Part shown: piece after piece, positions 33,825 through 35,222 of the stretch
Layout of the letters: each line of letters starts with the position of its first letter
How positions within the stretch are numbered: position 1 is the stretch's first letter
From: Escherichia phage warpig
Direction: 5' to 3' (one strand)
Sequence record: MN850637.1
Length of the DNA: 64,000 bases
The notes under the pieces: generated by a model
Seen by the model: only the letters and a program-made list of their open reading frames with translations
Database searches by the model: none
What the model was told of the DNA's origin: nothing
Made by a program: the position numbers and the translations under genes

Positions 33825-33902
33825 GGGAGATTGACGGTAATTGGTAAACCTACCATCCTTAGAAGTTGGTGTTTGAGGGTTCGAATCCCTTGTCTCCTAC
33901 CA
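33825..33902 (+). tRNA. tRNA with UAG anticodon (Leu-type anticodon but type-I length), uncertain
   Basis: acceptor GGGAGAT/GTCTCCT (two G-U), anticodon arm CCATC-CTTAGAA-GTTGG (4/5 bp), T-arm GAGGGTTCGAATCCCTT, CCA. Confidence 0.35.
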
Positions 33903-33909
33903 AATTAAT

Positions 33910-33986
33910 GCAGGTGTAGCAAAATGGTTATGCGGCTGACTCTTAATCAGTAAGACGATGGGTTCAATTCCCTCCACCTGTACCAG
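33910..33986 (+). tRNA. tRNA-Lys (anticodon CUU)
   Basis: acceptor GCAGGTG/CACCTGT, anticodon arm GCTGA-CTCTTAA-TCAGT, T-loop GGGTTCAATTCCC, CCA. Confidence 0.5.
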
Positions 33987-33991
33987 ACATT

Positions 33992-34067
33992 GGGGTCATA
34001 GTTTATATGGTTAAAATTCGAGTTTTGCAAACTTGGGAACTGAGTTCAATTCTCAGTGACTCCACCA
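33992..34067 (+). tRNA. tRNA-Ala (anticodon UGC)
   Basis: acceptor GGGGTCA/TGACTCC, anticodon arm CGAGT-TTTGCAA-ACTTG, T-arm CTGAGTTCAATTCTCAG, CCA. Confidence 0.55.
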
Positions 34068-34073
34068 ATTAGT

Positions 34074-34148
34074 GCATCCATAGTTTAAACGGGAAAATTA
34101 CAGTCTTCCAAACTGAGGTTGAGGGTTCGATTCCCTCTGGATGCTCCA
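34074..34148 (+). tRNA. tRNA-Gly (anticodon UCC)
   Basis: acceptor GCATCCA/TGGATGC, anticodon loop CTTCCAA, T-arm GAGGGTTCGATTCCCTC, CCA. Confidence 0.55.
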
Positions 34149-34155
34149 AATTAAT

Positions 34156-34231
34156 GCTCCTATCGTATAATAGGCTATTACGGTTGCCTTGTAAGCAACT
34201 TATCAGGGTTCGAATCCTTGTGGGAGCACCA
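34156..34231 (+). tRNA. tRNA-Thr (anticodon UGU)
   Basis: acceptor GCTCCTA/TGGGAGC, anticodon arm GTTGC-CTTGTAA-GCAAC (perfect), T-loop GGGTTCGAATCC, CCA. Confidence 0.6.
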
Positions 34232-34325
34232 ATTCAGAGGTCAAGTGAAAGACCGCTGGTGTCAACTGAAGACCGTAACAAATTCCACGGAGTTGAGTTA
34301 GCGGCACAACTTCAGACCTCTTTCA

Positions 34326-34401
34326 CACTCGCTTAGTTTATATGGTAAAACACCACCCTTACAAGATGAAGAAAAAGGTTCAAGTCCTTTAGTGAGTACC
34401 A
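34326..34401 (+). tRNA. tRNA-Val (anticodon UAC), tentative
   Basis: acceptor ACTCGCT/AGTGAGT, D-arm GTTT-ATATGGTA-AAAC, anticodon loop CTTACAA (weak stem), T-arm AAAGGTTCAAGTCCTTT, CCA. Confidence 0.4.
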
Positions 34402-34402
34402 T

Positions 34403-34480
34403 GTTCCAGTATCCCAATTGGCAGAGGATGCAAGCTCAAACCTTGTATTAGTGACGGTTCGAATCCGTCTTGGAACACCA
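34403..34480 (+). tRNA. tRNA with CAA anticodon (Leu-type anticodon, type-I length), uncertain
   Basis: acceptor GTTCCAG/TTGGAAC, anticodon arm GCAAG-CTCAAAC-CTTGT, T-arm GACGGTTCGAATCCGTC (perfect), CCA. Confidence 0.4.
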
Positions 34481-34499
34481 ATTTTAAGAGGCTATTTAG

Positions 34500-35057
34500 A
34501 TGAGATATTTGAAGTATGCTTCATGGATTTTCCTAGCTTTACTAGAGCCATTTGCAGCAACCCTAGCAGTCATCTTAGCACCTTTCGTAGTTCCATTCTA
34601 CAGTGAGAAGAAAGGACACCTACCTTTTGGATTCAGATGGATGGAGACCTATGACAACCCAATTGATGGTGATGAAGGTCACGTTAAAAGATGGGCTAAG
34701 ATTAGAAAGATTGGTAAGCTGGGTGTCTACATGCAGAGAGTTGGATGGCTCTGGAGAAACAAAGCTTATAACTTCTCTTACCATGTATTAGGAAGAGATG
34801 TAAAAGATGTTACTAAGTGGAAAGGCAATATCAACGTAAGTTCTGACCCTGAAGATAATCAGACTGGTTATCTCCTAATGTGGAATAGCAATGCTTGGGG
34901 ATTATTCGCTTTTATCCCATCAATTAAAGTCTTTGGTAAACAGTTTTACTGGAGAATTTATATTGGATGGAAACTAAAAAGCGTTGTCCCAGAAGAAAGA
35001 GCATTCTCAAGGGAAAGAGTTATGTTGGCATTCTTTATTCATCCACTGAGAAAGTAA
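34500..35057 (+). CDS. membrane protein encoded inside the tRNA cluster (hypothetical)
   Basis: 185 aa; ATG preceded by AAGAGG; N-terminal TM IFLALLEPFAATLAVILAPFVVPF; Trp-rich. Confidence 0.5.
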   Translation: MRYLKYASWIFLALLEPFAATLAVILAPFVVPFYSEKKGHLPFGFRWMETYDNPIDGDEGHVKRWAKIRKIGKLGVYMQRVGWLWRNKAYNFSYHVLGRDVKDVTKWKGNINVSSDPEDNQTGYLLMWNSNAWGLFAFIPSIKVFGKQFYWRIYIGWKLKSVVPEERAFSRERVMLAFFIHPLRK

Positions 35058-35065
35058 AGATTTAA

Positions 35066-35141
35066 AGGGGATTAGTTTACAAGGTTAAAACCTCGGTCTT
35101 TGAAATCGAAGAAGTTGGTTCAATTCCAACATCCCCCGCCA
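35066..35141 (+). tRNA. tRNA-Gln (anticodon UUG)
   Basis: anticodon arm TCGGT-CTTTGAA-ATCGA, T-arm GTTGGTTCAATTCCAAC, 3' ATCCCCC-G-CCA. Confidence 0.45.
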
Positions 35142-35143
35142 AT

Positions 35144-35222
35144 GCTCCATTACTCCAATTGGCAGAGAGGCCAGACTTAAAATCTGTGTTATGTATCGGT
35201 TCGAATCCGATATGGAGTACCA
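35144..35222 (+). tRNA. tRNA with UAA anticodon (Leu-type anticodon, type-I length), uncertain
   Basis: acceptor GCTCCAT/ATGGAGT, anticodon loop CTTAAAA, T-arm ATCGGTTCGAATCCGAT, CCA. Confidence 0.4.

Follow-up and report, generated by a model that had tools for sequence, protein, structure and literature searches.

In textbook accounts, a long variable arm is an invariable part of bacterial tRNA-Leu. Short (type-I) forms have already been described in mitochondria and in Streptomyces, genes of the kind discussed here have been annotated in phages, and one phage homolog has been functionally tested by its depositors. We describe three tRNA genes with leucine anticodons (UAG, CAA and UAA) in Escherichia phage warpig (sequence record MN850637.1), of which a stretch of 64,000 nucleotides (nt), referred to here as the window, was analyzed. 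To judge from their sequences, the three are real leucine tRNAs minus the long arm, with every feature that the host leucyl-tRNA synthetase (LeuRS) is known to need.

The closest described systems include host, engineered, organellar, bacterial and phage tRNAs. The E. coli isoacceptors leuW (85 nt), leuX (85 nt) and leuZ (87 nt) have the same three anticodons, serve here as the host comparison set, and have variable arms of 13, 13 and 15 nt. Leucine identity in E. coli consists of A73 and tertiary elements, excludes the anticodon and the long arm, and is retained in arm-less variants, which are still active (2023 review, PMC9976931); arm-deleted or minimalist E. coli tRNA-Leu constructs are still recognized by LeuRS through A73 and D/T-loop tertiary interactions (Larkin et al. 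2002, as summarized in PMC9976931). Animal mitochondrial tRNA-Leu(UUR/CUN) is of type-I length and is recognized mainly through A73 and A14 (PMC9976931). Streptomyces coelicolor has a type-I tRNA-Leu(CAA) that coexists with type-II tRNA-Leu and is served by a single LeuRS, with U8:A14 being important (PMC6614811). The phage homolog tested by its depositors is tRNA-Leu1(UAG) of phage BF23 (AJ604530), which is 77 nt long with a 5-nt variable loop (GUUUU) and is 83.8% identical to the UAG gene of the window. According to its GenBank note (AJ604530), swapping its anticodon for CUA gives an effective amber suppressor, and a tRNA of this type is thus charged and used by E. coli ribosomes.

The original prediction had proposed three short tRNA genes with leucine anticodons, encoded CCA and no long variable arm, and ARAGORN and Rfam call complete tRNAs at exactly those positions:

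33825-33902, plus strand: tRNA-Leu(UAG), 78 nt, type I; ARAGORN, Rfam RF00005 40.0 bits
34403-34480, plus strand: tRNA-Leu(CAA), 78 nt, type I; ARAGORN, Rfam RF00005 44.0 bits
35144-35222, plus strand: tRNA-Leu(UAA), 79 nt, type I; ARAGORN, Rfam RF00005 47.5 bits

The gathering score of RF00005 is 29, and model positions 1-71 of 71 are matched in all three genes. Direct reading of the sequence gives 7-nt anticodon loops with U33 present–CTTAGAA (UAG), CTCAAAC (CAA) and CTTAAAA (UAA)–and 3' ends in which discriminator A73 is followed by an encoded CCA (A-CCA). ARAGORN agrees with these anticodons, loops and ends, as does a covariance-model alignment of the UAG gene, in which the loop is CUUAGAA and the variable region is 5 nt. 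The long arm is missing, as had been claimed: the variable loops are UGUUU in the UAG gene (5 nt, 33870-33874), AUUAGU in the CAA gene (6 nt, 34447-34452) and GUUAUGU in the UAA gene (7 nt, 35188-35194), and none of them is a class-II arm of at least 10 nt forming a stem-loop. Each gene combines a leucine anticodon and a short unpaired variable loop with an otherwise complete cloverleaf, which defines a type-I tRNA-Leu. A combined pattern (leucine-type D-loop, leucine anticodon, short spacing and T-loop) has three sites in the window, which are the three genes, and none in 100 shuffles. The layouts, with the nucleotides at positions 9 and 13 and any wobble pair at the end of the acceptor stem, are as follows:

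UAG gene: GGGAGAU-UG-A(C)GG-U-AAUUGGUAAA-CCU-A-CCAUC-CUUAGAA-GUUGG-UGUUU-GAGGG-UUCGAAU-CCCUU-GUCUCCU-A-CCA; G9, U13, G1.U72 wobble
CAA gene: GUUCCAG-UA-UCC-C-AAUUGGCAGA-GGA-U-GCAAG-CUCAAAC-CUUGU-AUUAGU-GACGG-UUCGAAU-CCGUC-UUGGAAC-A-CCA; A9, C13
UAA gene: GCUCCAU-UA-CUC-C-AAUUGGCAGA-GAG-G-CCAGA-CUUAAAA-UCUGU-GUUAUGU-AUCGG-UUCGAAU-CCGAU-AUGGAGU-A-CCA; A9, C13, G1.U72 wobble

The UAA and CAA genes are probably paralogs, since they are 76% identical. The alternative raised in the original prediction, that the register was wrong and the genes belong to other isotypes, is ruled out: ARAGORN and Rfam agree on the register, and tRNAscan-SE isotype-specific scores published for the homologs in the Moogle-like phage Sf14 rank Leu first, at 67.4, 49.1 and 60.2 (PMC12482277). 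The anticodon loops of the UAG and CAA homologs in Sf14 are identical to those in the window, and that of the UAA homolog differs at position 32; the variable arm goes unmentioned in the Sf14 paper (PMC12482277).

Beyond their anticodons, the three genes share with leuW, leuX and leuZ the nucleotides on which leucine identity depends: U8 and A14, A15 and U48 (the last variable nucleotide), G18G19, A20a and A73 are kept in all three at the sequence level. The D-loop, AAUUGG(U/C)A(A/G)A, has the same length as that of E. coli, AAU(U/C)GGUAGA, with an almost identical sequence and G18G19 at the same place, and the D-stem has 3 bp with a non-Watson-Crick 13:22 pair, as in class II; the G1.U72 pair is shared with leuZ. 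The phage genes differ from these host tRNAs in having no variable stem-loop (5–7 nt versus 13–15 nt) and in their anticodon loops, including A37 in the UAG gene, and overall identity to the host isoacceptors is just 63–67%. Two of the three also differ from long-arm tRNA-Leu (n = 230) in having A9 and C13. The determinants used by other anticodon-independent synthetases are missing from all three, with no G3:U70 for alanyl-tRNA synthetase (AlaRS), no long arm with G73 for seryl-tRNA synthetase (SerRS) and no G-1 for histidyl-tRNA synthetase (HisRS).

The remaining systems resemble the locus in part. BF23 tRNA-Leu1 is likewise of type I, matches the UAG gene exactly in anticodon loop and T-arm, shares its U30.U40 mismatch, and comes from a phage that infects the same host; it differs in belonging to another phage family (Demerecviridae), in its acceptor stem, and in its D-stem, which is a regular one of 3 bp with G13 and lacks the extra nucleotide, and it is a single leucine tRNA tested for function, whereas the three in the window are known from sequence. 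The S. coelicolor tRNA-Leu(CAA), whose variable loop is short, is of bacterial type, but is chromosomal, does not use A73 as an identity element and is reported to be uncharged by E. coli LeuRS (PMC6614811); the phage tRNAs, by contrast, retain a D-loop of the E. coli type and have to function in E. coli or Salmonella. The minimalist E. coli constructs have the same arm-less core but are laboratory products, whereas the genes in the window are natural, evolutionarily maintained and carry extra core changes (A9, C13). Mitochondrial tRNA-Leu is organellar, with its own LeuRS, relaxed structures and no sequence relationship to the phage genes.

We conclude with good confidence that the three genes encode functional leucine-accepting tRNAs that have lost the long arm and are most likely charged by host LeuRS. 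They amount to class-II tRNA-Leu cores bearing a variable loop of class-I length, and would be transcribed within the phage tRNA array with CCA already encoded. Charging with leucine by the host enzyme is the most likely outcome because E. coli-type LeuRS reads A73 and elements of the D/T elbow (U8:A14, A15:U48, G18G19 and A20a) rather than the anticodon or the arm; the BF23 suppressor annotation gives indirect support. In decoding, the UAA and CAA anticodons would read UUA and UUG, and the UAG anticodon CUA and CUG, which suggests a role in codon supply. Leucine codons in 59 open reading frames (ORFs) of the window (38.9% GC) are TTA (27.5%), CTT (27.4%), CTG (14.8%), TTG (12.9%), CTA (11.2%) and CTC (6.2%). 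In E. coli, about half of leucine codons are CUG, and UUA and CUA are rare; phage use of UUA and CUA is far above that of the host, and the codons read by the three anticodons are therefore over-represented in the phage.

The window belongs to a Felixounavirus that is 99.5% identical to Escherichia phage skuden and 97–98% identical to other members of the genus, among them Felix O1 and many phages of Escherichia, Salmonella, Shigella and Citrobacter, and existing Felixounavirus records already annotate the three genes as tRNA-Leu. They are conserved in about 300 phage genomes, with 159 phage records for the CAA gene at 99% identity or more; the UAA gene has no homolog among 5,426 complete E. 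coli genomes. Pairing is maintained where the sequence changes. In the UAG tRNA of Salmonella phage Si3 the anticodon stem is CCUCG/CGAGG, compared with CCAUC/GUUGG in the window, such that three pair positions are changed with pairing kept or improved, and a compensatory variant of this stem is also found in one viral contig. Erwinia phage phiEa21-4 has short leucine tRNAs (CAA, AAG and UAA; 77–78 nt), in which the orthologous acceptor and T stems are wholly different and yet fully paired. BLAST finds homologs of the UAG gene in many T5-like phages, of which BF23 is described above; T5 itself carries a type-II tRNA-Leu(UAG) of ordinary form (85 nt) in the same slot, between Ala and Ser.

The same structure is conserved more broadly. 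A search with the type-I-spacing pattern matched at least 120 IMG/VR contigs, and ARAGORN calls at least 163 leucine-anticodon tRNAs of 81 nt or less in the matched loci, at least 145 of them distinct. Among the matches listed, the 145 distinct short viral leucine tRNAs whose variable region is at most 9 nt have A73 without exception (145/145) and U48 in all but two (143/145), both positions lying outside the search pattern; 121 of them have a 5-nt variable loop, and each stem position is paired in 90–100%, with four to six pair types everywhere except at the invariant G53-C61. RNAalifold applied to 50 short viral leucine tRNAs gives a cloverleaf in which the D-stem has 3 bp and the variable region is short, with double compensatory changes in 19 of 20 pairs. 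A pseudogene or decoy would show disrupted stems, lost tertiary nucleotides and no purifying selection; the three genes show isolated mismatches only, the conserved nucleotides are present, and evolution is compensatory across the Ounavirinae and T5-like phages.

Several observations weigh against functional, LeuRS-charged tRNAs. The UAG gene is irregular, with an extra D-arm nucleotide, a U30.U40 mismatch and A37 where G37 is expected, and the first anticodon-stem pair of the UAA gene is a C.U mismatch. Folded singly, the three genes give weak minimum free energy z-scores (-0.3, -1.8 and -1.6), and in two of them the fold of lowest energy is something other than the cloverleaf; since the computed folding of AT-rich phage tRNAs is weak, we use this result neither for nor against the reading and rely on covariation instead. 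The BF23 note is silent on which amino acid the suppressor inserts, and BF23 tRNA-Leu1 has G9 and G13, in place of the A9 and C13 of two of the window's genes. RefSeq labels the Si3 UAG gene tRNA-OTHER/pseudo, and the homolog in phiR2-01 is annotated 'tRNA-Pseudo-TAG'. Finally, a 2019 study reports a failure of E. coli LeuRS to charge the natural Streptomyces type-I tRNA-Leu(CAA), and describes the enzyme as charging type-II tRNA-Leu only, its leucine-specific domain favoring a large variable region (PMC6614811). We take this failure to be probably species-specific, with no general bar on type-I tRNA-Leu, because the Streptomyces tRNA set has its own peculiarities: E. coli LeuRS shows only half the activity even with the type-II tRNA of Streptomyces, and A73 is no identity element there (PMC6614811).

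In samples drawn without regard to arm length, short forms account for 15 of 120 viral matches (~12%) and 6 of 120 cellular matches from GTDB (5%). The short-arm leucine tRNA is enriched in viruses but not exclusive to them, since some of the cellular cases lie in ordinary chromosomal contexts. The premise of the original prediction that bacterial tRNA-Leu always has the long arm does not hold, given these six cellular matches and the type-I tRNA of S. coelicolor (PMC6614811). Arm loss is largely specific to leucine rather than serine or tyrosine: in loci selected for a short leucine tRNA, short forms make up 87% of leucine tRNAs, 2% of serine tRNAs (2/93) and 12% of tyrosine tRNAs. As raw counts that ignore kinship, C13 is present in 79 of 118 short-arm and 0 of 230 long-arm leucine tRNAs, and A9 in 69 of 118 and 0 of 230, respectively. 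A single lineage of short-arm leucine tRNAs is not supported, as 29 of 151 have a long-arm tRNA as nearest neighbor, with some pairs about 87% identical in the core; these sequence comparisons suggest repeated loss of the arm, followed by remodeling of the tertiary core in older lineages. We found no published description of short-arm tRNA-Leu in phages, of its breadth, of its specificity to leucine or of the C13/A9 signature, in a search that did not extend to most older subscription journals, including the T5 and BF23 tRNA papers of the 1980s–2000s.

Short-arm leucine tRNAs in bacterial assemblies are found in Herbiconiux, Gordonia, a Planctomycetota metagenome-assembled genome and one further genome, at the following loci:

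L283, 2732-2806: cellular short-arm locus
L248, 491-566: cellular short-arm locus
L292, 3550-3794: cellular short-arm locus
L328, 4733-5008: cellular short-arm locus

The Planctomycetota genome has three in a row beside a 100-nt tRNA-Tyr. That all such 'cellular' short leucine tRNAs are borne by prophages is ruled out, with at least the Herbiconiux and Planctomycetota loci lying among ordinary chromosomal genes (subtilase, histidine kinase and glutamate synthase), and type-I tRNA-Leu may be native in more bacterial lineages than Streptomyces.

Two further features of the relatives are separate from the arm itself. G37, the m1G37 site, is normal in leucine tRNAs reading CUN codons, and the UAG gene has A37 in its loop (33860-33866); the share of such tRNAs with A37 is 1/59 for cellular long-arm, 23/77 for viral long-arm and 35/75 for viral short-arm sequences (loci L005-L349). 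The commonest loop with A37 is CUUAGAA, and T5 and BF23 also have A37, which is a virus-enriched trait of the anticodon loop, separate from arm loss. Phage Si3 has one chimeric leucine gene (locus L351, 4001-4079), which joins the 5' part of the CAA gene to the 3' part of its UAA paralog; a deletion between the two across the shared CCAATTGGCAGAG apparently produced this gene and removed the intervening ORF and tRNA-Gln, and the hybrid acceptor stem has one G.A mismatch.

The three genes lie within a tRNA array in which other class-II tRNAs serve as internal controls:

31707-36416, plus strand: tRNA gene array, 21 tRNAs (ARAGORN) with small ORFs interspersed; the same array is annotated in skuden
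33480-33569, plus strand: tRNA-Ser(UGA), 90 nt, long arm kept; internal control (ARAGORN)
36244-36336, plus strand: tRNA-Ser(GCU), 93 nt, long arm kept; internal control (ARAGORN)

The tRNA-Tyr of skuden (88 nt) also keeps its long arm. That the arm is kept in the serine tRNAs and lost in the leucine tRNAs fits the needs of the synthetases, as SerRS requires it and LeuRS does not, and in the simplest reading the leucine arm would have been lost through this relaxed constraint, after which the core would have been re-stabilized (A9, C13).

A different account of the arm loss itself, compatible with the identity proposed for the genes, is that it is an adaptation: the short form would hide phage tRNA-Leu from a host factor, such as a tRNA-modifying abortive-infection toxin or a nuclease, that recognizes class-II tRNAs, LeuRS would still charge it, and a protected leucine-decoding pool would remain during infection. 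We consider this unlikely. The higher frequency in viral than in cellular samples is in its favor, as are the apparent repeated origin, with cores close to those of long-arm tRNAs, and the distinct core signature at positions 9 and 13, and there are precedents for the parts: the toxin MenT3 prefers tRNA-Ser and some tRNA-Leu, its authors having remarked on their long arms (PMC7450476), and evasion of host tRNases by phage tRNAs through anticodon-loop changes has been proposed (PMC10264068). The viral excess is modest, however, the samples being small and not independent; protection would be only partial, as the phage Ser and Tyr tRNAs keep their arms, and T5 itself keeps a type-II tRNA-Leu. 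To our knowledge, no E. coli or Salmonella host factor targets tRNA-Leu through its arm. Relaxed constraint together with deletion bias would give the leucine-specific pattern without any benefit. We likewise give little credence to the broader proposal that arm-less tRNA-Leu with a remodeled core (A9, C13.A22) is a recurrent and widespread phage adaptation that escapes class-II-sensing defenses, e.g. AbiEii/MenT-type DUF1814 nucleotidyltransferase toxins. If it were true, leucine decoding would be kept running during abortive-infection responses and, as a corollary, E. coli LeuRS would charge a natural type-I tRNA-Leu, against the generalization from the Streptomyces tRNA.

The original prediction was borne out in calling the tRNAs unusual, in that leucine anticodons are combined with type-I length, but its suggestion that they might be mischarged or act as decoys finds no support. 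On that account the tRNAs would be charged by another synthetase and insert a residue other than leucine at leucine codons, or remain uncharged and soak up a host nuclease or other tRNA-binding factor, and the reported failure of E. coli LeuRS to charge a natural type-I tRNA-Leu (PMC6614811) speaks for it, together with anticodon loops unlike those of the host at positions 32, 37 and 38 and the A37 at the m1G37 site of the UAG gene. We regard it as very improbable: all LeuRS identity positions are kept, with A73 and U48 essentially invariant in the 145 sequences among the matches listed, the stems co-vary, none of the AlaRS, SerRS or HisRS determinants is present, and the remaining synthetases rely on anticodons not present in these tRNAs. 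The BF23 homolog, annotated as an effective suppressor, is charged and used on the ribosome, and the anticodons correspond to codons in heavy use in the phage. That the genes are decaying or non-functional relics, as the pseudo labels of some pipelines imply (e.g. the RefSeq flag on the Si3 UAG gene), can be dismissed almost entirely, as the irregular D-arm, the stem mismatches, the weak single-sequence folding energies and the Si3 chimera made by deletion between paralogs are set against conservation in about 300 phage genomes, compensatory substitutions that keep the stems paired, an encoded CCA and the suppressor activity annotated for BF23.

No synthetase, LeuRS included, is found among the window ORFs of at least 450 amino acids or the ORFs of the array, in the 64 kb inspected of the ~87-kb genome; a phage-encoded LeuRS was thus rejected for these ORFs, of which one, of 788 amino acids, is without a Pfam match. 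That ORF (6679-9045) has no match at E <= 0.001 and adjoins a nicotinamide/nicotinate phosphoribosyltransferase homolog (4322-6103). Sites resembling promoters at 31560, 31651 and 32570, and one resembling a terminator at 36579-36596, match the consensus only, at a level that does not exceed chance.

Relative to skuden, the array of the window differs locally. A block of about 450 bp between tRNA-Met and tRNA-Lys, with tRNA-Asn, tRNA-Tyr and tRNA-Asp, is missing (32036-32320 in the window), so tRNA content varies among near-identical Felixounaviruses. At 32801-33246 a 441-bp segment stands in place of skuden's tRNA-Arg(UCU) gene. It includes an aberrant tRNA-like sequence (32803-32881) that scores 33.4 bits with Rfam and receives no ARAGORN call, with good acceptor, anticodon (UCU) and T arms, about 5 nt at the place of the D-arm and a 'variable' region of about 23 nt. 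An overlapping ORF of 132 amino acids (32848-33246) matches an HNH endonuclease weakly (E = 0.0068, which does not reach the Pfam cut-off), and the segment may be a homing-endonuclease-associated replacement.

Directly upstream of the array, an ORF of 471 amino acids (30126-31541) matches DUF2828 and DUF7788, and is labeled 'vWFA protein' in skuden and 'RNA-binding protein' in Si3; its position beside the tRNA genes might be meaningful. Two conserved ORFs lie within the array, one with DUF7338 (185 amino acids, 34500-35057) and one with DUF7217 (35292-36242). The true start of the latter is probably downstream of 35491, because its longest frame overlaps tRNA-His and tRNA-Phe and its Pfam match begins at residue 80. 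A tRNA region of the Felix O1 type is also present, at 98% identity, in the record of Staphylococcus phage SA1 (GU169904.1, 59852-62482), which suggests a chimeric or contaminated deposit.

The arm-less phage tRNA-Leu is an under-described and widespread tRNA variant, rather than a decoy or a mis-reading. Annotation pipelines mislabel such short-arm genes as pseudogenes, and the viral sample, in which about one in eight leucine-type matches is short, suggests that the variant is common in phages. The C13/A9 signature could guide tRNA engineering, e.g. of compact orthogonal or suppressor tRNA-Leu scaffolds. With their one to three arm-less leucine tRNAs, phages of E. coli and Salmonella offer a natural test of what E. 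coli LeuRS needs; if loss of the arm does protect from class-II-sensing toxins, it would be a new route among the tRNA-based counter-defenses of phages.

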